Part shown: in pieces, positions 1,269-12,900 of the stretch | How the letters are laid out: each line of letters opens with the position of its first letter | How positions within the stretch are numbered: the first letter of the stretch is position 1 | Assembly: GCA_002419365.1 (NCBI GenBank) | Contig: DIGA01000067.1 | Location: forward strand, 4,586-68,585 | Origin: Mageeibacillus sp. UBA5734 | Lineage (GTDB): Bacteria > Bacillota > Clostridia > Saccharofermentanales > UBA5734 | DNA: 64,000 bases | Reading direction: 5' to 3' | Translations under genes and position numbers: made by a program | The notes under the pieces: model-generated | Told to the model about the DNA's origin: nothing | Seen by the model: only the letters and a program-made list of their open reading frames with translations | Database searches by the model: none

Positions 1269-1297
1269 TTGACAGCATCCGGCGGCAATGCTATGAT
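1269..1297 (+). promoter_or_regulatory. Sigma-70 promoter for tRNA-Trp
   Basis: TTGACA (1269-1274), 17 nt spacer, TATGAT (1292-1297). It ends 13 nt before the tRNA 5' end. Confidence 0.5.
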
Positions 1298-1310: not shown

Positions 1311-1385
1311 AGGGGAGTGGCTCAACGGTAGAGCAGCGGTCTCCAAAACCGCGGGTTGCGTGTTCGAATCGCGTCTCCCCTGCCA
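1311..1385 (+). tRNA. tRNA-Trp (anticodon CCA), encoded CCA end
   Basis: Hand-folded cloverleaf. Acceptor AGGGGAG/CTCCCCT, D arm GCTC..GAGC, anticodon stem GCGGT/ACCGC with loop CTCCAAA, T loop TTCGAAT, discriminator G followed by CCA. Confidence 0.9.
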
Positions 1386-1388
1386 AGT
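1341..1388 (+). repeat. Direct repeat copy 1 (attL-like): 3' part of tRNA-Trp from the anticodon loop through CCA plus 3 nt
   Basis: The 48 bp CTCCAAAACCGCGGGTTGCGTGTTCGAATCGCGTCTCCCCTGCCAAGT are identical to 8560-8607. Imperfect similarity continues about 10 nt further. Confidence 0.9.
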
Positions 1389-1393
1389 ATAAA

Positions 1394-1442
1394 ACCCGGA
1401 AATGCCTGCGGCTGTAGGCTCTCCGGGTTTTTATTTTAATCA
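1394..1442 (+). terminator. Intrinsic terminator after tRNA-Trp
   Basis: Stem ACCCGGA (1394-1400) pairs with TCCGGGT (1432-1438), followed by a T-run. Confidence 0.55.
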
Positions 1443-1473
1443 TATATCTATTAATCGGTATATCAATATGCAC

Positions 1474-1498
1474 TTTAGTGGCCATTTGGTGGCCATTT
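1474..1498 (+). repeat. Island-arm repeat, left copy (tandem GTGGCCATTT units)
   Basis: TTTAGTGGCCATTTGGTGGCCATTT closely matches 8421-8444 (TTTAGTGGCCATTTAGTGGCCATT) in the same orientation. It is followed by ATTACAACAGAGCA (1502-1515), which matches ATTACAGCAGAGCA at 8502-8515. Confidence 0.8.
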
Positions 1499-1734
1499 AC
1501 TATTACAACAGAGCATGATAGATGAAGTCATCCTGCGGTTTTGATCATAATGGAGCAATACGAAATATATCACTACGAATGCTCCTGTTTCTTAATATTA
1601 CCGGCATTGAATCCTCCATCCGTTGCGGCGGAAACTGTTTCGACGGTTTGAAAAGAGCTGGTTTAGTTATTTACGATCGTGGCTAATCGCATGATGCAAG
1701 CAATGCACCAGAATGCAGCTTATCGATATTTGAA

Positions 1735-4719
1735 TCAACCGTACTGATTATTTTGATTAAACGTCCGATATACCTCCATCGCCAGCAGATCAATTATCTT
1801 ACTGCGGAAGTCGTCCTCGGTCAGGATCCGGGTGTAAAACGCCTGGTTCTTGTCAAATTCCTTGATCACATTTTCCGTGAAGGCGGGTTCGAAGGCCAGC
1901 CGGAAGGTCTCGAGCGGATTGGCGCGTGCTTTCACTTCGAGGCTCTTATCCAGTTTGAGGCTGGTGACGATCTGCTCGACGGCCAGCCGTTCGGTGTCGG
2001 CAAACTCGGTGCCGTACCGTTGATTGAGCCGGTCGATAATCACACTCAGGGGATCTTTCTCCGGCTGCTGCGGGGGTCCTCCCTCAGCGATATTGATGAC
2101 GACACCCTCGGATGCTCCATACTCGCCAGACCGCAATGAGTCCTTATCCAGCTTGTAATACTGCAGGACAACCTTGTCGGTCAGATCAATCGGTTTGGGA
2201 TCCTCAACTTCGAGCTTTTTCAGCAGGAAGCGTAGGAAGATCTGCAGGCGATGCAGCTCGGTATCGACAAACGGCGCGACCTGGATGATCAGGTTGTAGA
2301 AATTGATGAAGTGATTGATCAGGCTTCTGAATTCGATCAGCTCATCACGGGTGAAGTCCTTGGTCCGTTTGACGGCGTTATCGACGCAGTTGTTCATGAT
2401 GCTCTGGTCCTGAGTCGTCGGCTGGACCTTGTAAAAGAGATTGGAGAACAGCATGACATCCGCCGGATCGACCACATGCTTGTCGCCGATCACTGCCTGT
2501 AGCTTGTAAATGTCGTTCGGCGAGATGTCCTTGGTCAGCATCGTGGTCCGGTAGAACGGCGCGAAGGATTCCTGGATGTCCTCGATCGTGTTGACGAAAT
2601 CAAGGACGAAGGTGTCTTCCTTGCCGGGCATGGTCCGGTTGAGCCGGGACAAGGTCTGAACCGCCTTCACACCGGACAACTTCTTATCCACGTACATGGT
2701 ATGGAGTTTCGGCTGGTCAAAACCGGTCTGGTATTTGTTGGCTACGATCAGGATACGATGGTCATCCTTGTCGAATTCCGCAGGTAGCTGAGTCTCGGCC
2801 ACACCTTTGTTCATCGATGACTCGCGGTATTCCTTGTCCGTCTCCTTGTCCTTCAAAGAGCCGGAGAAGGCGACCAATGTTTTCAGGTCGGTGTATCCAT
2901 GTTCCTTGATGTAGGCATCGAAGGCCAGCTTGTAGCGCACGGCATGCAAACGCGAGGTCGTAATCAGCATCGCCTTAGCCTGGCCACCGATCTTCTTCAT
3001 CGTGTGACGCCGGAAATGCTCGATGATAATCTCCGTCTTCTGGGCGATGTTGTGCGGATGCAGGCTGACGAAGCGGACGATCGACCGGGTGGCCTTAGTC
3101 TTGTCAAACTCGGGGTCGTCCTCGATTTTCTTGTTGACGTTGTAATACATTTTATAAGTCAGGTACTGTTTCAGGACATCGAGGATGAAGCCTTCCTCGA
3201 TCGCCTGGCGCATGCTGTAGACATGGAAAGGCCAATACTGACCGGATTCATCCGGTCGGCCAAACAAGCGCAAAGTCGTGCCCTTGGGCGTGGCAGTGAA
3301 GGCGAAAAAGCTTAGCTGGCTGGTGTCGGTGAATTGCTGCAGTTCTTCGTTGATCTTGTCTTCAACGTCCTGCTCCCTGGCCTCTTCCTGGCTGGCGATC
3401 TCGGCTGCTTCATCGAGGGTCAGTGACTCGCGCAGGGCAACCATGCTTTGGCCGGAAGTCGAGGAGTGCGCCTCATCAATGACAATGGCATAGCGCTTGC
3501 CCTTGGTCGCGGACAGGAGCGATAGGATGTAGCGGAACTTCTGGATCGTGCTGATGATGATCTTGGTGCCCTTTTCGATTTCGGCAGCCAATTGAGCTGA
3601 ATCGGTGTCGATCTTGGCAACAACACCAACCTTGTGCTCAATCTGGTAGATGGCAGTTTGCAGTTGCTGGTCAAGGACTTTGCGGTCAGTGACGACAATG
3701 ACGCCGTTGAAGATGACCTGGTCGGATGCATCATGGAGTGAGGCCAGGCGATGGGTCAGCCAGGTGATCGTATTTGTCTTCCCGGAACCTGCAGAATGCT
3801 GGATCAGGTAGCGCTGGCCGCAGCCTTCCTGGCGAGTGGCTTGCAGGACGGTGCGTACGGCATCGAGCTGGTGGTAGCGCGGGAAGATGATGCGCTCCTT
3901 CTTGCGGATCTCGCCATTGGCATTAGTTTCCTCTTTTTGTTCGACATAGGTGAAGTTCTGCAGGATTTCCAACAGCAGATCCTTGGCCAGTACTTGTTCC
4001 CAAATGTAGTGAGTCTTCAGCTTGCCGGGCACATCTGGATTGCCAGCGCTGTCGCCGTTGCCGCGGTTGAATGGCAGGAACGTAGTCTGCGGCCCGCTCA
4101 ACCGAGTGGTCATATACGCTTCATCGGTGTCCATCGCGAAGTTGACGACCACACGCTGCTTGAACATGAAGAGTTTCTCATTGCCGCTGCGTTCGTTCTT
4201 GTATTGGGCGATCGCGTTGCGCCAAGTTTGGCCGGTGAAGGCATTTTTCAGCTCAAAGGTGATGACTGGCAGGCCATTGAGGAAAATGACCAGGTCGATT
4301 CGCTTCTCATCGGAGTAATTGAGTTCCTCGGTGACTGAGAGGATGTTCTGGCTGTAGAGCAATGCCTGGTCGGGATTCATGCCGGATGCCGGTTTGAAGT
4401 AGGCCAGGTCGAGCTTGATGCCGTAGTCCTTGATACCGTGTTTCAAGACATCGAGGGTACCCCGGCTTCGTAGGTTGATGTCGAGGTTGGCCTGGACTTT
4501 GCTGCGGTAATTGTCCTTATAGATATCTTTCAGCCGGGCTGTTGATTTGCTCTGGGTGGTTTCCAGGAAATCGAACAGGCAGTCGACATTGAGCGCCAGT
4601 TCCTTATGATAGGAATGATTGGTCGATGCGCGGTAGCCATGCTGCTCAACCAGGTAGGATTTGATCAGGCTCTGGAAGGATCGTTCCTTCAGGATATCCG
4701 GGGTGATGGACGTGATCAT
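1735..4719 (-). CDS. hsdR: Type I restriction enzyme, R subunit
   Basis: 994 aa with a PD-(D/E)xK-like nuclease motif (DLVIFLNGLPVITFELK), Walker A (SAGSGKTNT) and a DEAH box (VIDEAHSS). SD GGGAGG is present. The ATGA start overlaps the hsdS stop. Confidence 0.92.
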   Translation of the reverse strand: MITSITPDILKERSFQSLIKSYLVEQHGYRASTNHSYHKELALNVDCLFDFLETTQSKSTARLKDIYKDNYRSKVQANLDINLRSRGTLDVLKHGIKDYGIKLDLAYFKPASGMNPDQALLYSQNILSVTEELNYSDEKRIDLVIFLNGLPVITFELKNAFTGQTWRNAIAQYKNERSGNEKLFMFKQRVVVNFAMDTDEAYMTTRLSGPQTTFLPFNRGNGDSAGNPDVPGKLKTHYIWEQVLAKDLLLEILQNFTYVEQKEETNANGEIRKKERIIFPRYHQLDAVRTVLQATRQEGCGQRYLIQHSAGSGKTNTITWLTHRLASLHDASDQVIFNGVIVVTDRKVLDQQLQTAIYQIEHKVGVVAKIDTDSAQLAAEIEKGTKIIISTIQKFRYILSLLSATKGKRYAIVIDEAHSSTSGQSMVALRESLTLDEAAEIASQEEAREQDVEDKINEELQQFTDTSQLSFFAFTATPKGTTLRLFGRPDESGQYWPFHVYSMRQAIEEGFILDVLKQYLTYKMYYNVNKKIEDDPEFDKTKATRSIVRFVSLHPHNIAQKTEIIIEHFRRHTMKKIGGQAKAMLITTSRLHAVRYKLAFDAYIKEHGYTDLKTLVAFSGSLKDKETDKEYRESSMNKGVAETQLPAEFDKDDHRILIVANKYQTGFDQPKLHTMYVDKKLSGVKAVQTLSRLNRTMPGKEDTFVLDFVNTIEDIQESFAPFYRTTMLTKDISPNDIYKLQAVIGDKHVVDPADVMLFSNLFYKVQPTTQDQSIMNNCVDNAVKRTKDFTRDELIEFRSLINHFINFYNLIIQVAPFVDTELHRLQIFLRFLLKKLEVEDPKPIDLTDKVVLQYYKLDKDSLRSGEYGASEGVVINIAEGGPPQQPEKDPLSVIIDRLNQRYGTEFADTERLAVEQIVTSLKLDKSLEVKARANPLETFRLAFEPAFTENVIKEFDKNQAFYTRILTEDDFRSKIIDLLAMEVYRTFNQNNQYG

Positions 4720-6107
4720 GAGGCACCTCCCTGCTCGATGATCTCCCAGTCGCGCAGGTCGATCTTGCCTGTTACTGCTTCGGTGATGAGGGATTGCTTG
4801 GCGGATTTGAGGAGAGAGATTTGGTAAAGATTTCTGTTGATTTGATTGTTGATTATTCCCAATTTGCGATCACTTATTTCAACAATTTCAAATTGTTCAA
4901 TGATTGGTGGTGCGCACATTTTTAGCTCATTCAGTGATCCGAGTGTTAATGCTGGTTGTGCAGAGCCATTCACTATGAAATGGATAGCACCTTGAAAACG
5001 AAGAGCTAATAGTGAGTATTGAATATATTTATTACTATATTGCTCCGCGACAGATAATTTCAGTGAGTTGCCTGAAACTACTGATGGTTTATCAAGTTTT
5101 GGCAAAATACCTGACATACCGAAATTTGCCCCGATTTTTGCAATTACTATGTCGCCTTCTGTGCAAGAACTCCTTTTAATTGTATTGAAATGGCTATTTG
5201 TAATTGTTTTAAAATCTTTATTCAAGAATTCACCAGTTGAAATAAAGCCGCTCTCAACAATATAAACATCACCGTCATCAACATAGTGTTCAGATTTAAG
5301 ATTTGACCCGAATGGTCCATCAACAAATGAATTTCGTTTCGAAGATTTTATATACTTTATCTTTTTCGCATTCCACTCCTTCGGAATCATTCCCAGCCAC
5401 TCAACGCCGCTGTTCTTCATCTCTTCCGGCTGGCGCGGCACAAGCTGACCATCGACGATCTTGACCTTGCCGGTCACGACCTCGGAGATCAGGGATTTCT
5501 TGGCCTCCTCAAGCTTGGCGATCAGCTGTTCTTTCTTGGCGATGATCGAGTCGAACTGGGCACACTTGATGTTGAGGAAATTGGCGATTTTTCGCTGTTC
5601 CAATATCGTTGGATAGGTTAGTATAGTATCTCCAAATTCTGCGTACCTAAAATCAGTTGATCTTTCGCGAATCCCCTTAGCTAAACTCAAAATGTAGTTC
5701 TTCTGCGCCATATCTTTCAGAAGATAACCATAATATGCTTGTTCTACTGGTTTAAATGGACTGCATACGGAATATACTGGAGAACATTTCCCTGTGCTCT
5801 CAGAGATACCCATGGCACCTGCAAATGCATCCATGGCACTAATTACAAGGTCACCTTTTAAAACCCTCTGGTAGCCAATTTCTTTAATTGCAAACGTAAA
5901 TCCTTCAGTACGTCTATTTTCTCTAAGTGTAACTTGACCATCACGAAATGCTGTAACTACCATATCATCTGGTTGAACGGGTCGATTTTCTTTCTTCCAA
6001 ATGTACTTAGCCCGATAGACTTTCCAATCTAGCGGAACAAGTCTTCCCAGCCACTGGATCCCACTGTCCTTCATTTCATCGGCAGAGCGATACTTGATCC
6101 CGTCCAT
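4716..6107 (-). CDS. hsdS: Type I R-M specificity subunit with two target-recognition domains
   Basis: 463 aa with two variable halves. Each is followed by a conserved coiled region (..AKKSLISEVVTGKVKI.. and ..AKQSLITEAVTGKIDL..). It overlaps hsdM (TGATG) and hsdR (ATGA). Confidence 0.9.
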   Translation of the reverse strand: MDGIKYRSADEMKDSGIQWLGRLVPLDWKVYRAKYIWKKENRPVQPDDMVVTAFRDGQVTLRENRRTEGFTFAIKEIGYQRVLKGDLVISAMDAFAGAMGISESTGKCSPVYSVCSPFKPVEQAYYGYLLKDMAQKNYILSLAKGIRERSTDFRYAEFGDTILTYPTILEQRKIANFLNIKCAQFDSIIAKKEQLIAKLEEAKKSLISEVVTGKVKIVDGQLVPRQPEEMKNSGVEWLGMIPKEWNAKKIKYIKSSKRNSFVDGPFGSNLKSEHYVDDGDVYIVESGFISTGEFLNKDFKTITNSHFNTIKRSSCTEGDIVIAKIGANFGMSGILPKLDKPSVVSGNSLKLSVAEQYSNKYIQYSLLALRFQGAIHFIVNGSAQPALTLGSLNELKMCAPPIIEQFEIVEISDRKLGIINNQINRNLYQISLLKSAKQSLITEAVTGKIDLRDWEIIEQGGAS

Positions 6108-8194
6108 CAGCCGATCACCTGCCTGATCTCAGCCTGGATCTCTTTCTCCAATGCTTCAATTTCCTGCATGATCTCGGCAAATGGGCGCAACGGTTCATAC
6201 TTATAGAAATACCGGGTGAATGGGATCTCATAGCCGATCTTGGTCTTGTCGGGGTCGATCCAGAACTCCGGCACATGTGGCTGGACCTCGCGCTCGACAT
6301 AGGCCAGGATGTTGTCATTCTCCTTACGGATGTGTTGGACGGGATCGACTTCGAAGGTCGTGACATCCAATGAAAGCGGAATGGTCTCCGTATCGCGCAG
6401 GGATGTATCCGGTTCTCTATTTTTTCCTTTGAGGCAGTAATCAGCCGTTTCATCCCGTTCAGACAGGGCATTCATCATAACCTTGATCAGGTTGGCTGGC
6501 AGGTTCATGTCCTTGACCTGAGCCTTGAGATGTTTCTCAAAGGTTTCGCGGTTCTTAAAGACCCGGTTGTCTGCCAAGCGCTGCAACCGGTTGATGATCG
6601 CTTCCTGGGTGATCTTGCCAGCGTAGTAGTTCTCTAGCTGCTGCAAATCCTTCTTCTTCAGCGTCCCCTTCTCTTTCTCCAGCTCGAGCTCTGCGACCTT
6701 CTCCTCATCATAGAGGTTGGCAAAGGTCGATTCGGCATAGAGGTTCTCGATCCGCTCCGGGCTGATCTGGAAATTCAGGCGCAGCGGACGCTCGATCGTC
6801 ACCTTCAGGTAGCCGAATTCCTTGTTGTCAAAGATCTTGCAGAACTCACCTTCCTGGAATGAACCATAGATGCGGGAGATCTCGGCGATGTCCTGCTCAC
6901 CGATCTCATTGCGTTTGGACCCCAGGGACTTTCTCATTTTGTGATAGAAGCTGGTGGCATCGACCAACTGGACCTTGCCGGTGCGGATCGGTCCATTGAG
7001 GATGTTCTCATTCTTGCGGTTGGTCAGGATCCAGACATAGGTTGCAATCCCGGTGTTGTAAAACAGATCGGTCGGCAAGGCGACGATCCCCTCGAGGTAG
7101 TCGTTCTCGATGATCCAGCGCCGGATCTCGGACTCGCCGGAACCGGCATCACCAGTGAAGAGAGGCGAACCATTGAAGATGATTGCCATCCGCGAGCCTT
7201 TGGGATCCTGCATCATCTTCGAAAGCATGTGCTGCAGGAACAACAAGGAACCGTCCGAAGTGCGCGGCGTACCGGCACCAAAACGGCCATCGAAGCCGAG
7301 TTCACTGACCTCGCGGTCGATGAAGTCCTTGTCCTTCTTCCAATCAACACCGAACGGTGGATTCATCAGAGCAAAGCGGACGCGTTGACCTTTGTGTCCA
7401 TCCTGAGTGAAGGAGTTGCCGAACGCAATGTTCTTCTCCTGCTGGCCTTTGATCAGAATGTCGGATTTACAGATCGCATACGATTGGGGATTCAGTTCCT
7501 GACCGAACACTTCCACCTGTGCATCTGGGTTCATTTCCTGGATATAATTGGTCGCCACGGACAGCATGCCGCCCGTCCCGCAGGCAAAATCCCCAACAGT
7601 GAAGATGGCCCCCGGGATGAGTAGTTCGTCGTCCAGCCCATTGAAGATCAAGTTGACCATCAGGCGGATGACTTCACGCGGCGTATAGTGATCGCCGGCT
7701 TCGGCATTTTCAGAAAAGCGCCGGATCAGCTCTTCGAAGATGTAACCCATCTCCTGGTTGCTGACCACATCCGGGTGCAGATCGAGGGCAGCGAAGTCCT
7801 TGGTCACCAGGAACAGAAGATTGTTCTCATCGAGCTTTTTCAGCTGAGCATCAAACTCGAAGTATTCGATGATCTCCCGGATGTTGGCCGAGAATCCCTG
7901 GATGTAGTTGATGAAGTTGGCTTTGATGTGGTCCGGGTCATCTAAAAGTTTATTGAAGTCAAAGCGGGATTTATTGGAGAAGCTGTAGCCAGCGACGCTG
8001 TTGAGGATTGCTTCTATGTCGGTGGCCTTGGCCTTGTCGAGGACGGCCTGCTTGGTATTGGAAAGAACACAGTCGAAGCGGCGCAGGACCGCCATGGGCA
8101 GGATGACGTCACCATATTTTTCCGGCCGGTAGGGACCGCGGAGCAGTTCGGCGATTTTCCAGATGAAATTGACTTTGGAACTGAAGTTGTTCAT
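6107..8194 (-). CDS. hsdM: Type I R-M N6-adenine DNA methyltransferase subunit with a long C-terminal extension
   Basis: SAM motif DFACGTGGML and catalytic LMNPPFG are present. I prefer the ATG at 8194 (MNNFSSKVNFIW..). The ORF-track start at 8233 is a TTG. Confidence 0.9.
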   Translation of the reverse strand: MNNFSSKVNFIWKIAELLRGPYRPEKYGDVILPMAVLRRFDCVLSNTKQAVLDKAKATDIEAILNSVAGYSFSNKSRFDFNKLLDDPDHIKANFINYIQGFSANIREIIEYFEFDAQLKKLDENNLLFLVTKDFAALDLHPDVVSNQEMGYIFEELIRRFSENAEAGDHYTPREVIRLMVNLIFNGLDDELLIPGAIFTVGDFACGTGGMLSVATNYIQEMNPDAQVEVFGQELNPQSYAICKSDILIKGQQEKNIAFGNSFTQDGHKGQRVRFALMNPPFGVDWKKDKDFIDREVSELGFDGRFGAGTPRTSDGSLLFLQHMLSKMMQDPKGSRMAIIFNGSPLFTGDAGSGESEIRRWIIENDYLEGIVALPTDLFYNTGIATYVWILTNRKNENILNGPIRTGKVQLVDATSFYHKMRKSLGSKRNEIGEQDIAEISRIYGSFQEGEFCKIFDNKEFGYLKVTIERPLRLNFQISPERIENLYAESTFANLYDEEKVAELELEKEKGTLKKKDLQQLENYYAGKITQEAIINRLQRLADNRVFKNRETFEKHLKAQVKDMNLPANLIKVMMNALSERDETADYCLKGKNREPDTSLRDTETIPLSLDVTTFEVDPVQHIRKENDNILAYVEREVQPHVPEFWIDPDKTKIGYEIPFTRYFYKYEPLRPFAEIMQEIEALEKEIQAEIRQVIG

Positions 8195-8420
8195 GATGAC
8201 ACTCGCTTTCCAAATGATGTTAGACAAAATCAAACATAAATAGTATAACCATCATTTGCCGCGAATTGAACCTGTTTCTGTTTTTGCGTCTTCAAACTTG
8301 AAGAATCAGTATTATCAAGATGTATCATACGTATTTCAGTACACTTTTGGTACCATTCATGCGAGAACTTCAGAATTCATCTATAATGCAAGTGAATATT
8401 CTTTTATGGTTAGGAGCCAT

Positions 8421-8444
8421 TTTAGTGGCCATTTAGTGGCCATT
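8421..8444 (+). repeat. Island-arm repeat, right copy (tandem GTGGCCATTT units)
   Basis: TTTAGTGGCCATTTAGTGGCCATT is the counterpart of 1474-1498. A tandem GAGCACATTA/GAGCACATTG lies at 8511-8530. Confidence 0.8.
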
Positions 8445-8559
8445 CGCCAGAAAAAACGGCGACACAATAGAGAATATTAAGAAAGTTAAGCAAGGTCATA
8501 CATTACAGCAGAGCACATTAGAGCACATTGGATATAAATATATTAAATCGCCCCGCAAA

Positions 8560-8607
8560 CTCCAAAACCGCGGGTTGCGTGTTCGAATCGCGTCTCCCCT
8601 GCCAAGT
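8560..8607 (+). repeat. Direct repeat copy 2 (attR-like): orphan 3' half of tRNA-Trp
   Basis: These 48 bp are identical to 1341-1388. There is no 5' half of a tRNA upstream, so this is not a functional tRNA. Confidence 0.9.
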
Positions 8608-8613
8608 GTAAAA

Positions 8614-8646
8614 TCCTGGGACTTCATGGAAGCCCCAGGATTTTTA
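8614..8646. terminator. Bidirectional intrinsic terminator (ancestral tRNA-Trp terminator and metY terminator)
   Basis: Stem TCCTGGG (8614-8620) pairs with CCCAGGA (8634-8640). It is flanked by an A-run on one side and a T-run on the other. Confidence 0.55.
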
Positions 8647-8668
8647 TTTATCTTGGCAGTTTTTTGGC

Positions 8669-9946
8669 TCAGATCTTTTTAAAGGCCTGCTCCAAGTCCT
8701 CGATGATATCTGCCACATTTTCAATGCCGACTGACAGGCGGATCAGGTCAGGTGCGATGCCGGCGGCCTGCAATTGTTCGTCGGACAACTGCCGGTGGGT
8801 GTGGCTGGCCGGATGGAGCAGACAGGTCTTACTATCGGCGACATGGGTGACAATCGAAGCCAGCTGCAAACTATCCATGAACCGGTTGGCCTGTTCGCGG
8901 CTGCCTTTGATCCCGAATGCCAGGACGCCGCAAGAGCCATTGGGCAGGTATTTTTGTGCCAAGGCATAGGATGGGCTGGTCGGCAGATCCGGATAATTGA
9001 CCCAGGCGATTTTATCATGGCTGGCCAGGTATTGGGCGACGGCCAGGGCGTTGGCACAGTGCTGTTTCATGCGCAGATGCAGGGTTTCCAGGCCAAAATT
9101 CAGGTAGAAGGCATTTTGCGGTGACTGGATAGCCCCGATGTCGCGCATCAGCTGGGCAGTGGCTTTGGTGATGTAGGCGCCCGGACCGAAGCGTTCGGCG
9201 TAGACAATGCCATGATAGGAGTCATCCGGCGTGGTCAGGCCGGGGAATTTTTCGGCCTGGGCCAGCCAGTCGAACTTGCCGCTATCGACGATGCATCCAC
9301 CCACTCCAGCCGCATGCCCGTCCATGTACTTGGTCGTCGAATGGGTGACGATGTCGGCGCCCCATTCAAAGGGGCGGCAGTTGATCGGTGTCGCGAAGGT
9401 ATTGTCGACGATCAGCGGCACCCCATGGCGATGGGCCAAGCGGGCGAATTTTTCGATGTCAAACACGGCGACGGTCGGGTTGGTGATGGTCTCGCCAAAG
9501 ACGGCCTTGGTGTTCGTCTGGAAATACTGGTCCAGCTCACTTTCTGGCAAATCCTGATTGACAAAGGTGCATTCAATGCCCATTTTTTTCAGCGTGACAC
9601 CAAACAGGTTGTACGTCCCGCCATAGATCGAAGAAGTGGCGATAAAATGGTCACCAGCTTCACAAATGTTGAAAATGGCATAGAAATTGGCGGCCTGGCC
9701 AGATGCGGTCAACATGGCGGCCGCACCACCCTCGAGGGCCCGGATCTTGTCAGCAACAGCATCATTGGTTGGGTTTTGCAGGCGGGTGTAAAAATAACCC
9801 GCTTCCTCGAGATCGAACAGCCGGCCCATCTCGTCACTGGTATCGTATTTGAACGTGGTGCTTTGATAGATGGGCAGCTGCCTGGGTTCGCCTTTGGCCG
9901 GCTGATAACCCGCATGGATACACTGGGTTTCGATTCTGTTTGACAT
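8669..9946 (-). CDS. metY: O-acetylhomoserine sulfhydrylase (PLP-dependent Cys/Met metabolism family)
   Basis: 425 aa beginning TQCIHAGYQP...YTRLQNPT, with the HSTTKYMDGH PLP-lysine motif. SD AGGAGG is present. Confidence 0.88.
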   Translation of the reverse strand: MSNRIETQCIHAGYQPAKGEPRQLPIYQSTTFKYDTSDEMGRLFDLEEAGYFYTRLQNPTNDAVADKIRALEGGAAAMLTASGQAANFYAIFNICEAGDHFIATSSIYGGTYNLFGVTLKKMGIECTFVNQDLPESELDQYFQTNTKAVFGETITNPTVAVFDIEKFARLAHRHGVPLIVDNTFATPINCRPFEWGADIVTHSTTKYMDGHAAGVGGCIVDSGKFDWLAQAEKFPGLTTPDDSYHGIVYAERFGPGAYITKATAQLMRDIGAIQSPQNAFYLNFGLETLHLRMKQHCANALAVAQYLASHDKIAWVNYPDLPTSPSYALAQKYLPNGSCGVLAFGIKGSREQANRFMDSLQLASIVTHVADSKTCLLHPASHTHRQLSDEQLQAAGIAPDLIRLSVGIENVADIIEDLEQAFKKI

Positions 9947-9987: not shown

Positions 9988-12900
9988 TTAGAGTCCCGTC
10001 ACCGGCGTCAGCGCAACGATAAACTCAGCTGTGTTCTGTGTTCCAGCAAAATCTTCGCGAGTGATCTTCTGGCCAGGCTGGCCACCGGATGGCTTGTAAT
10101 GCCAGTCGATTTTCCAGTCGATCAAGTTCTGGCAGGCCACTCGCGATTCATGGCTTTGCTGCAATCCACAATCGGACAGACGGTCACTGGCGCAAAAGCT
10201 GAAGGGCTGGTTGCTTTCAAACAGCAAGCCGCTGCCGCTGGCATCCGCCACAGCCACCCATCGTGTCTGGGCATGTGGCAATTCCTGCTGGAAGGATTCG
10301 CGAGCATCCGGCATGATGTGGGTCAGAGGTTGCTCGAATTGTCCGTCAAAAGCCATCCCGCGCAGTCCAGGCCAGGATGGTCCCGGACCCTGGCCTGACC
10401 AGATGATCCGTTCATACTGGCGGCGTAGCAAGAAGCGCAGGCCAACCCGGGGTAATTCCGCCAGCAAATCCTGGTTTTTACAGGGCAGGCTGACCTGGAC
10501 CTCAATCTTGCCACTCTCGTGAATCGTGTACAACAGACGGGCCGCCAGCCAGGTTTTGGCACCGGCTGACCCAAAACGGCAGTGCGCTACGATGGAGGCT
10601 GTCGCCCCATCACAGTCCGATTCAATCCGGTCAACCACTTGCTCCAGCCCAGAAAGGCCAAGCTGGTCCCAATCATGAGCCCATGCCTCGTCCTGGCTCA
10701 GCAATGGCCGCCAGAAGACAAGCGCTGATGGTGCCAGCAGACCATTCATCTGGACAAAGGCCAGGTACTCATGATCCTTGCAGCGCCAGCTTTCGATCTG
10801 GGCGGTAATCCGGTTGAACACGAGCCAGAACCGGTGGCCAGAAACAACCAGCAAATGGCGGTCTTGTTCCAGGCGAAGTCGATTCCTGCCTGAAACGATG
10901 ACGGGAACCAGCTGCTTGAGGAAAGGGTCCCGGGCATCTGCCAGAAGATCCAATTCAAAGCTCTCAGTGGACACAATCCAGTCAGCCGGACTCCACAGAG
11001 TGGCTTCGATCTGGTGAACGGTGAGGTGCAACAGGCAAGGAAGGTCATGGGGGCGCTCGACCTCATGATACGGGATGGACAAATCAATGGACTGGCCAGG
11101 CAGAACGGGCGGCAAATCGATTTCGCCTGCCAAGACCAGACGGCCACTGGCCACGATTTGCCAATGCAGGCGGTACAGATCCAGGCTCTGGATCCGCGTC
11201 CGGTTGGTCACTCTGAAATGGCCGGTTTGAAGATCAATCGGCCTGATGTCAGCAGGGCGCCTGGCTTGGCGGATCGCAGCCAGGGCAACGGACTGGGAGC
11301 GTCCCTGAGGGCTCTGGATCTGGTCGTGGACCTCCTGCCAGGTGCCAAGAAGCACGCCTGAAAAATGAGAACGGACTGCCTCATCCGTCAAAAAATGCAG
11401 GAAGGGATGGGTTCCACCCCCCTGAAGGCTGAAGCCTGGAGCTAGAATCTGGATGACGGGGCCTGGGCTGGGGTCGACAACAGGACTCTTGGAATTTTTT
11501 CCGCCGAACCTGGTGAATTGGACCAGAGGGCGGGATGGATCCAGCTCTCTGACCAGCATAGACGGCCGAGGATCCTCTGCAAATAGTTGGCTGGATGTTA
11601 ACCAGGCCAGGATACAGGGCTGATTCCTAAGCAAGTTTACCTGACTGTGCAAACGATCTTCTTGAACAGTCAGCCATGGTTCACTTTGCCAGGGCTTCTC
11701 TCCCCGCTTTTCTTCAGACGTTTGCCATTCCAGAACCGGCTCAGCAGCTGGACCGACCAGGACAAGCAGTCCCAGGTGGTTGCACAGTTCATAGAAAATT
11801 GGATCCACAGGACCTCCGAGCAGCCGGATCGCATTGACATGCTGACGGATGAGGCGCAAGTCGCGAGCCACACGAGCCAGCGGTTTGAGAAGACTGGTCT
11901 GGCGATCCACTGGATCGTAATCAGCCAAGTGGAGCTGCAGAGGTTGTTGATTGAGATAGAGCAGACCATCGCGTACCGACCGCTCACAAAAGCCGACCGA
12001 CTGGTGGACAGTACTGGATTCCCTGCCACTGGCATCGAGGCAGGTGACAAACAGGTCATACAATTCGGGTTGTTCATCTGACCAGGGTTGGATATCCGGG
12101 CAAGCCACATGCAGTCTGGCCAGGCCAGCCTGCTGGACTTTCGTATCAAATCCAGCTGGATCCAGCTGGATTTTTTCCGGTTTGACCACCTGTTGTAAAA
12201 TGACCTGACCTTCTTTTTGCAAAGTGAAACGGACCTGCGGCAGATCCTGGGTCACTTTAAAAGACAGGGCCGTCGCCTGAGCGGCCAATTCCCACAGATC
12301 CGCATGAGGATCCTGGCGGGTATGCACGGATAAATCAAAAACCGATAACGCAGGGGTTGCTTCCAGATAGATGTCACCGGCCAGTCCGGTCTGGCCGGTG
12401 AGGGAGTGGCCGTCGAGGTAACTGGCTGCATGATAGGGATAGACCAGGATAAACAGCTCATTGCTACCGTCATGGAGACGAGAAGTCACATCGAATTCAT
12501 TCAACTGACGACCATTCTGGACATAGCCGACGAGTTTACCGTTCAGAACGACATGACAGGCCTCCAGGACCCCCAGGAGCACCAGTTTTTTACGCAAGGC
12601 GCTCCAGTTTTTCGGCAGTTCCAGGCTGCGATGGTAGACCGCGACCGGCAGGGTCTGCGGCACATGGGGTGGGTCCAGGACAAAGGGCCACGCTTGGATC
12701 CTGTCCTGTGCCTGAGCCAGTGCGGGCCGGGAACCTGGCACCGTCATCCGGTCAAAGCCGCTGCGATAAGAGAAAATATTCTCAGGTAGTTGCAGGATGG
12801 AACCAAACCATTTGTAGTCCCAGGGACCAGTCAGCATCTGGACATAAGGTGACAAATATCGCCGGTTATCCTCCAGCGCCTGTTCACAGGTCTCCTGGTC

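Follow-up and report, generated by a model that had tools for sequence, protein, structure and literature searches.

An integrase-less restriction-modification island at the tRNA-Trp gene of a Clostridia bacterium

The tRNA-Trp gene of the Clostridia bacterium Mageeibacillus sp. UBA5734 harbors a 7,219-bp genomic island, which was analyzed in a stretch of 64,000 nucleotides (contig DIGA01000067.1 of assembly GCA_002419365.1, positions 4,586 to 68,585 of the forward strand; hereafter the window, to which all coordinates refer unless another contig is named). The island contains hsdR, hsdS and hsdM, the genes of a restriction-modification (R-M) operon, as its sole cargo between two non-coding arms and two attachment sites (attL and attR), and it possesses no integrase gene. 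Judging from its sequence, it has the structure of a cis-mobilizable element (CIME). CIMEs are known from Streptococcus and other Bacillota as relics of integrative and conjugative or integrative and mobilizable elements (ICEs or IMEs; PMC5704250). The kind of element is already known, and the island is a further example of the CIME type. On balance, we consider it probable that the island is an immobile relic of this type, the presence/absence polymorphism of which is moved by homologous recombination.

Attachment sites and arms of the island

The island is delimited by an intact tRNA-Trp gene at one end and by a fragment of this gene in direct orientation at the other, as expected of a genomic island. 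The first base of the shared 48-nt repeat is the start of the anticodon loop, and its last base lies 3 nt beyond CCA. These 48 nt are perfect, and the extended repeat (1341-1397 vs. 8560-8616) is identical at 55 of 57 positions (repeat finder). Most of the layout had been described in a sequence-only reading of the window, i.e., the 48/48 repeat of the tRNA 3' half with decaying similarity beyond it, a hairpin and T-run after each copy, the tightly coupled hsd genes, the two AT-rich non-coding arms, and the lack of integrase, excisionase and transposase genes; all of this was borne out by the repeat, folding, composition and homology searches presented here. The features are as follows (position, strand, description).

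1311-1385, plus strand: intact tRNA-Trp (CCA) gene (ARAGORN); its 3' part from the anticodon loop on is the attL core
1341-1388, plus strand: attL copy of the 48-nt direct repeat (anticodon loop to CCA, plus AGT), 48/48 identical to 8560-8607
1389-1734, no strand: left (P') arm, AT-rich, non-coding, 346 nt, GC content about 0.40-0.43
1391-1436, plus strand: hairpin and T-run supplied by the island, ending the reconstituted tRNA (fold 1391-1431, -24.8 kcal/mol, z -5.2)
1474-1498, plus strand: tandem arm-type motif TTTAGTGGCCATTTGGTGGCCATT, i.e., two GTGGCCATT units with an 11-bp period, starting 92 nt past the tRNA end
1502-1515, plus strand: second shared motif ATTACAACAGAGCA (weak support, p about 0.03)
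1735-4719, minus strand: hsdR, 994 amino acids (aa), intact (Pfam HSDR_N/ResIII/SWI2_SNF2/T1R_D3; PADLOC REase_I)
4716-6107, minus strand: hsdS, 463 aa, two target-recognition domains (PADLOC Specificity_I, full length, E 4e-80)
6107-8194, minus strand: hsdM, 695 aa, intact (Pfam HsdM_N and N6_Mtase; PADLOC MTase_I, 908 bits, full length)
8195-8559, no strand: right (P) arm, AT-rich, non-coding, 365 nt, GC content about 0.35
8421-8444, plus strand: tandem arm-type motif TTTAGTGGCCATTTAGTGGCCATT, oriented as the left copy and ending 115 nt before the core
8502-8527, plus strand: ATTACAGCAGAGCA followed by tandem AGAGCACATT AGAGCACATT; the tandem part is kept in the relatives' contigs L093/L094
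8560-8607, plus strand: attR copy of the 48-nt repeat, the displaced tRNA-Trp 3' half (repeat finder)
8606-8650, plus strand: host tRNA terminator, allele T_y (upper stem ACTTC/GAAGC; fold 8606-8647, -19.9 kcal/mol, z -4.9)

Both hairpins were found by RNA folding, and a simple terminator scanner had missed each of them. The attL hairpin is missing at the empty sites of two relatives (contigs L001 and L097) and is 96% identical in an island variant (L103). From the two ends, the circular form is predicted to have the attP junction ATTAAATCGCCCCGCAAA + 48-nt core + ATAAAACCCGGAAATGCC, and the empty site of the window's lineage (lineage A) with the T_y terminator the attB junction GAGCAGCGGT + core + GTAAAATCCTGGGACTTCATGGAAGCC.

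The same-oriented motifs that the sequence-only reading had reported in both arms are not of equal weight. The tandem GTGGCCATT stood firmly. Its left pair begins 89 nt after the 48-nt repeat, AGTGGCCATTTRGTGGCCATT occurs in the 64 kb at 1477-1497 and 8424-8444 only (chance expectation 0), its 20-bp form GTGGCCATTTNGTGGCCATT lies at 1478-1497 and 8425-8444, and the 9-mer GTGGCCATT is confined to the four units of the two arm pairs. The motif is restricted to the island ends and is not a genome-wide repeat, which would have spoken against its connection with the island. The second motif, ATTACA(A/G)CAGAGCA at 1502 and 8502, is real and weakly significant, as 6 of 200 shuffles gave an equally good 14-mer match between the arms. 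Repeats of the arm type that differ from the core and are present on both sides of it correspond to an attP of the lambda/L5 type.

No integrase was detected in the window with a local integrase hidden Markov model (HMM; best E-value 0.25), and the island contains neither an excisionase nor a transposase gene. The small open reading frames (ORFs) of the arms have zero Pfam or PHROGs matches, and no integrase remnant was found in the arms by tblastn. Two tblastn signals were discarded: matches of the peptide MATKWPL in the arms are the translated motif itself and not an integrase remnant, and a match of 11/31 residues at 8239-8331 (E about 0.02-0.04 in a database of 805 nt) was judged to be due to chance. 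The island-encoded tyrosine integrase by which islands of the Islander type are recognized (PMC4383910) is lacking. The left arm is one of two positions where the integrase gene sits in related elements.

The genes hsdR, hsdS and hsdM are coupled by stop/start overlaps (ATGA and TGATG), and three subunits with intact catalytic motifs in one operon mark them as a type I R-M system (Pfam, NCBIfam, PADLOC). This operon family is widespread in Clostridia. Outside the host clade, the closest HsdM homologues (83-84% identity) are encoded by the operons on contigs L091, located in a defence island together with AIPR and McrBC, and L092, located beside a relaxase gene together with AbiJ and SIR2. DNA similarity to both begins at the hsdM ATG (8194-8199) and stops at the hsdR stop codon (1760-1768). 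Because homology ends at the operon limits, the arms are separate from the R-M module, and the island is essentially an attP plus one operon. Tracing the parent element through the R-M genes was given up, as the contexts of L091 and L092 are unrelated and possess no tRNA, motif or integrase.

Integrase-bearing elements with the same arm motif

The sequence-only reading had taken the repeat for the scar of a tyrosine integrase and the arm repeats for its arm-type binding sites. This interpretation gains support from integrase-bearing elements that have the same motif, orientation, spacing and a crossover in the anticodon loop. One of them is a 6.1-kb element at tRNA-Arg(CCG) on contig L035. Its attL consists of the tRNA, 67 nt and a cluster of GTGGCC units; its attR consists of a second cluster in the same orientation, 119 nt and a repeat of 45 nt that begins with the anticodon loop. 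Directly inside attR, where the window has hsdM, lies the integrase gene (domains Arm-DNA-bind_4, Phage_int_SAM_3 and Phage_integrase), and the cargo is a DUF3987 gene. Another element was found at tRNA-Lys of Coriobacteriia in three contig pairs (L019/L032, L080/L074 and L058/L065). Here, the order is tRNA-Lys, terminator, 68 nt, motif and integrase at attL, and motif, 94 nt, a tRNA-Lys fragment from the anticodon loop and its own terminator at attR. Furthermore, the middle of the 8.3-kb contig L066 (4793-5040) contains the arm motif, 95 nt, a 47-nt core, the element terminator, the arm motif and the integrase in this order; this attP-like junction of the Coriobacteriia element stems either from a tandem array or from the assembly of an excised circle.

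The island of the window resembles these elements in the tandem GTGGCCATT in both arms with the same orientation and comparable spacings, in the repeat that starts at the anticodon loop, and in the terminator supplied by the element. It differs from them in that their integrase gene lies beside one of the arm motifs, whereas the island has none; their cargo, tRNA cores and phyla are also different, and their arms cannot be aligned with those of the window beyond the motif. As the design matches the integrase-bearing relatives in all but the integrase, we regard 1341-1734 and 8195-8607 as genuine attL and attR. The retention of both sites, which is a trait of CIMEs, is thus indicated by sequence, orientation and spacing in comparison with these relatives.

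To see how far the arm motif extends, public collections were scanned for GTGGCCATTTNGTGGCCATT. The numbers of loci with this sequence were as follows.

Viral contigs: 0
One genome per species: 22
Metagenome contigs: 52

The hosts belong to Chloroflexota, Coriobacteriia, Pseudomonadota, Gemmatimonadota, Bacteroidota, Cyanobacteriota and others. A complete tRNA gene (Glu, Lys, Gly, Gln, Met, Arg, Ser) precedes the motif on its strand, at a distance of 48-150 nt, in 16 of these 74 loci, and at further loci a check for the T-loop pattern revealed tRNA-like sequence near the motif. The tRNA species found beside the motif are Glu, Lys, Gly, Gln, Met, Arg, Ser, Val and Trp, and the motif is always oriented with the tRNA. 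At 13 loci, no more than about 250 nt separate the motif from a tyrosine integrase gene (six seeds were confirmed with Pfam, and the set was extended by the local HMM); the stop codon of this gene is often just 7-13 nt away from the motif. The N-terminal domains of these integrases differ, being Arm-DNA-bind_4 (26 bits in L035 vs. a cut-off of 22.3; weak in L019) or Arm-DNA-bind_2 (L022). In total, GTGGCCATTTNGTGGCCATT spans at least six phyla and ten tRNA species. Such conservation of an arm-type signal across phyla is unusual, and no description of a GTGGCCATTTNGTGGCCATT-type motif was found in the literature, where a string search gave primers and siRNAs only.

In three gammaproteobacterial contigs (L022, 6566-7999; L068, 10071-11861; L070, 358-1908), the integrase reading frame is open through the motif, which is translated as MATKWPL, and in L068 the frame is open through the tRNA-Gln gene as well. 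Integration may alter the integrase C-terminus in these cases, as where attP lies inside int.

Empty sites, island variants and the origin of the island

Empty sites, as predicted from the sequence alone, do exist in relatives, which were retrieved as contigs with exactly matching flanking proteins. Contig L001 is an empty site of the same species, with flanks 99.8% and 98.9% identical to the window, in which tRNA-Trp continues straight into a terminator of the type found at 8608. Further empty sites are present in L097, L119 and L116. Identical copies of the island were found in L002, L003, L010, L088 and L089, which derive from metagenomes of hydrocarbon-degrading cultures. In a sister lineage about 10% diverged (lineage B), the island is present in L093-96 and absent in L097, despite 98.3-98.9% identity of L097 to L093.

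The copies of lineage B are 92.7% identical to the window in hsdM and the right arm. They possess another HsdS, have lost one arm unit (11 bp), so that the tandem motif in the right arm of L093/L094 is reduced to a single unit, and have CAA instead of CCA in the attR fragment. The right arm is about 97% identical to L094 at 8197-8400 and about 87% in its att-proximal part. A third variant (L103) contains two extra ORFs of unknown function after hsdR; its left-arm repeat reads TTTAGTCATTATTTGGTCATTATTT. The hsdR gene of L103 is 94% identical to that of the window, and its flank is 97% identical to L097 and 90% to L001. Arm sites are eroded or replaced in two of the three island variants. An attempt to reach the attL of lineage B through L098 was abandoned, as the region upstream of proC is rearranged there and cannot be aligned.

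Both units of the arm repeat of L103 (3340-3400, reverse strand) are GTCATTATT rather than GTGGCCATT, a concerted 4-nt change on a conserved TTTRGT scaffold. Tandem GTCATTATT is repeated 3-4 times in divergent-promoter regions of the IMG/VR contigs L113 (3758), L114 (8254) and L115 (4161). Double GTCATTATT in these three viral contigs was rejected as representing att arms, since the repeats resemble operators in such regions. In L103, GC-rich repeats of ~50 nt (GGGCCACCC.TCGCGC..CCCTGGCCCCGATCCGTGCAATTTCCGC) also fill the spacer between proC and tRNA-Trp upstream of the tRNA (3650-4200, reverse strand); they are absent from the window and look like repetitive extragenic palindromic (REP) or miniature inverted-repeat transposable (MITE) elements. 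The assembly to which L119 belongs (GCA_009930065.1) has the empty tRNA-Trp site on a 41-kb contig and, in the same metagenome-assembled genome (MAG), a 1.8-kb contig with an HsdR fragment (NCC77474.1) at least 90% identical to that of the window, which suggests that carriers and non-carriers co-occur in this sample.

The flanks of the site bear footprints of homologous recombination. One of them lies beyond the attR terminator.

8683-8915, no strand: tract at the 3' end of metY, homologous-recombination footprint with 24 single-nucleotide polymorphisms (SNPs) in 233 nt compared to L001

Divergence between the window and L001 is about 10% over ~250 nt next to the site and falls to a background of about 0.5%. 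Similarly, L093 and L097 show 11 differences over 1,036 nt, 9 of which fall within 70 nt of the repeat. The terminators behind the site exist in two alleles, the upper stems of which differ by compensatory changes: the empty sites L001, L097 and L119 have T_x (GCATCT/AGATGC), and T_y is present in carriers. In lineages A and B alike, the allele tracks the island and not the lineage. A strict tie between allele and island state had to be softened, as L116 has T_y without the island. Because of the other terminator allele and the flank tract diverged by ~10%, the allele of L001 did not arise by excision from a window-type allele, and the haplotype-linked divergence of the flanks suggests that plus and minus alleles were exchanged by homologous recombination rather than by recent clean excision. 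At 16 of the 24 SNPs in the metY tract, the window has the nucleotide of L097, and L001 alone deviates; it may thus be L001 that imported its tract, from a third lineage. Vertical co-divergence of the island with its host was rejected: the L103 hsdR is closer to that of the window than to that of L094, in spite of a B-like flank, and island phylogeny thus conflicts with flank phylogeny.

These data are consistent with the following history. The ancestral attP would have combined a 48-bp copy of the tRNA-Trp 3' half with two flanking arms, each bearing a GTGGCCATT pair: the P arm on one side and the P' arm, which also contained a terminator, on the other. Recombination of this attP with tRNA-Trp, through a crossover in the anticodon loop, would have been catalysed by a tyrosine integrase whose N-terminal domain binds the arms, and the element's tRNA 3' half and terminator would now complete the tRNA at attL, while the displaced host 3' half and host terminator would be found at attR. 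The integrase would once have been present and is now missing. Since then, a group of related Clostridia lineages appears to have kept the island as a long-standing presence/absence polymorphism, in which homologous recombination through the conserved tRNA and metY flanks accounts for most gains and losses; this later behaviour is moderately supported. A frequency-dependent benefit of variable R-M presumably helps to maintain it. As the att sites of the window strain are pristine, an integrase of the same family could still move the island in trans.

The structure agrees with that of CIMEs in the retention of both att sites without recombination genes, the location at the 3' end of a conserved gene or tRNA, the adaptive cargo, and a site where several elements accrete. 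Differences are that the island shows no conjugation or mobilisation remnant, that no tandem with an integrase-bearing element is seen at the site, and that the host belongs to an uncultured Clostridia lineage. Because of the first difference, a small element of satellite-like nature, such as that of L035 with DUF3987, is a possible parent. The sequence-only reading had considered cassettes of this kind poorly described; this did not hold, as CIMEs have been defined (PMC5704250), and the H47 genomic island of the microcin H47 system of E. coli, integrase-less and mobilised by functions supplied by the host, is known as well (PMC3191183). Like H47, our island is small, has direct repeats as att sites and encodes no recombinase. 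Excision and integration of H47 have been shown experimentally (PMC3191183), whereas our island is known from sequence alone; moreover, H47 is bounded by long, imperfect repeats that contain several segments for crossover, in contrast to one perfect 48-bp core plus arm repeats, and the H47 cargo is a microcin system instead of R-M. R-M genes are also carried by small intY islands downstream of tmRNA (PMC12595487), and islands at tRNA and tmRNA genes have been catalogued by Islander (PMC4383910). These resemble the island in the regenerated tRNA-type target, the displaced fragment at the far end, and a cargo mostly of phage defence without transfer genes, but they encode an integrase.

Several points weigh against an immobile relic. 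No flaw is seen in the att features of the window strain (48/48 in the core, four perfect 9-mers), although island variants differ by 6-8% in coding sequence. Under neutral decay, ~84 unchanged nt have a rough P of 0.01-0.03, which hints at selection for function or, for the core, at gene conversion. No integrase pseudogene or fragment is left, a state that simple deletion neither requires nor predicts. Site-specific events could also account for the precision with which the island is present or absent at the repeat in two lineages. In the more distant L116 (~84% identity), an intact tRNA is followed immediately by T_y, as would be seen in an excision product or in the original attB. The arm domain of an integrase is inferred to bind GTGGCCATT from the position of the motif only. 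Finally, the search for a helper integrase covered only the 64 kb of the host genome and ~10 kb beyond.

The sequence-only reading had left open whether the island is decayed or is a cassette mobilised in trans. The flank haplotypes and the eroded arms of the sister variants lean to decay. A functional minimal defence cassette that is kept free of an integrase, and the intact attL and attR of which are used in trans by a GTGGCCATT-arm integrase from another element of the same cell, or in cis through joint excision with such an element integrated next to it, is possible and in our view rather unlikely. It would explain why core and arm sites are pristine in both arms, why the island consists of attP and one operon without debris, the precise plus/minus polymorphism in two lineages about 10% apart, and the conflict between island and flank phylogenies seen with L103. 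L116 would be the attB expected before insertion or after excision, the concerted change of the left-arm units in L103 would fit co-evolution with a binding protein, and H47 (PMC3191183) and CIMEs (PMC5704250) provide precedents. However, no helper integrase is present in the window or in 385 kb of the relatives' loci. The circular junction of 8559 with 1389 that the sequence-only reading had suggested looking for did not turn up, as all 6 contigs with exact HsdR/HsdS are chromosomal integrated copies, and neither a circle nor an attP junction is among them. In addition, the minus allele of the same species is no excision product, sister variants have mismatched or eroded arms, and the exact arm motif is absent from viral contigs. 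A phage or prophage source was rejected, the arm motif and the tRNA-Trp core having 0 matches each in IMG/VR.

A broader form of this explanation would postulate a class of minimal integrase-less defence cassettes, the att sites of which are kept by selection and which are shuttled in trans by cross-phylum integrases sharing the tandem GTGGCCATT arm code (11-bp period) and differing in the tRNA core. We consider this quite doubtful. If true, one resident integrase could service several cargo-only cassettes at tRNA genes, as an integron integrase does with gene cassettes.

It is improbable that an integrase was never adjacent to these genes and that the 7.2 kb are a module of a larger composite or tandem array at tRNA-Trp that included HicAB, the integrase-bearing member of which has been lost while an internal att now bounds the island. 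In L116, a HicA/HicB module is located between tRNA-Trp and metY (about 10990-11950, reverse strand), flanked by an ~83-nt direct repeat that comprises the last 38 nt of the tRNA and the terminator; neither an integrase nor the GTGGCCATT motif is part of this module. HicAB is absent from the window, the sequence of which after the attR terminator (8651-8668) matches that after the distal repeat of L116. The tRNA-Trp/metY gap of relatives contains R-M only, HicAB only, or both, and the state with neither was not seen. Two independent, repeat-flanked, integrase-less modules in the same gap, occurring in all combinations but this one, speak for an array, as do tandem accretion as a documented route to CIMEs (PMC5704250) and the attP-like or tandem junction of the Coriobacteriia element in L066. 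Yet about 12 independent contigs show no integrase-bearing member at this site, and HicAB, without GTGGCCATT and with other repeat limits, therefore probably arrived by another route.

That the island is not an integrative element at all, its repeat and arm likeness being products of a local duplication or of illegitimate recombination around an R-M operon gained by homologous recombination, is hardly credible and effectively refuted by the comparators: the R-M family does move among contexts (defence island in L091, relaxase-associated element in L092) and the flanks bear recombination footprints, but the repeat begins exactly at the anticodon loop and ends just past CCA, the island brings its own terminator, the chance expectation of the motif pair in the window is 0, and motif, orientation and spacing match integrase-bearing elements at nine other tRNA species.

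As a CIME-type relic, the island would be a natural example in which the history of an island is readable, i.e., site-specific arrival, loss or absence of the integrase, and a polymorphism moved by homologous recombination. It bears on R-M polymorphism in uncultured anaerobes and on the gathering of cargo-only modules at tRNA hotspots. The cross-phylum arm motif may matter more than the island itself. If integrase arm domains bind the 20-bp motif, it would be unusual among recombination signals in its conservation and could serve in practice to delimit islands, including those without an integrase.

The R-M operon and minor features

The HsdR protein contains GSGKT (Walker A) at residue 311, DEAH at 415 and the PD-ExK motif as D142-E155-x-K157 (D-x13-ExK), and HsdM has the catalytic motif NPPF at residue 278. 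The hsdM start was taken as the ATG at 8194, following the annotation in relatives. The operon promoter and the 5' untranslated region are probably located in the hsdM-proximal half of the right arm.

The GC content of hsdS (0.35-0.41) is much below that of the neighbouring genes. Between the HsdS of the window (463 aa) and that of L094 (433 aa; 5328-6629), only the central part (5369-5600 of the window) aligns, with 92% identity; as read from this alignment, both target-recognition domains are swapped between the lineages, and hsdM and hsdR are still 90-93% identical.

HsdM is unusually long, with a C-terminal extension of ~220 aa that is not covered by Pfam. The family is tightly conserved (69-78% identity across many Clostridia, 71% to Methanococcus voltae), which implies frequent inter-domain transfer of this R-M type.

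Outside the island, the host sequence upstream of the tRNA contains one further element.

1269-1297, plus strand: promoter-like site for tRNA-Trp (TTGACA, 17 nt, TG-TATGAT; 11/12 matches)

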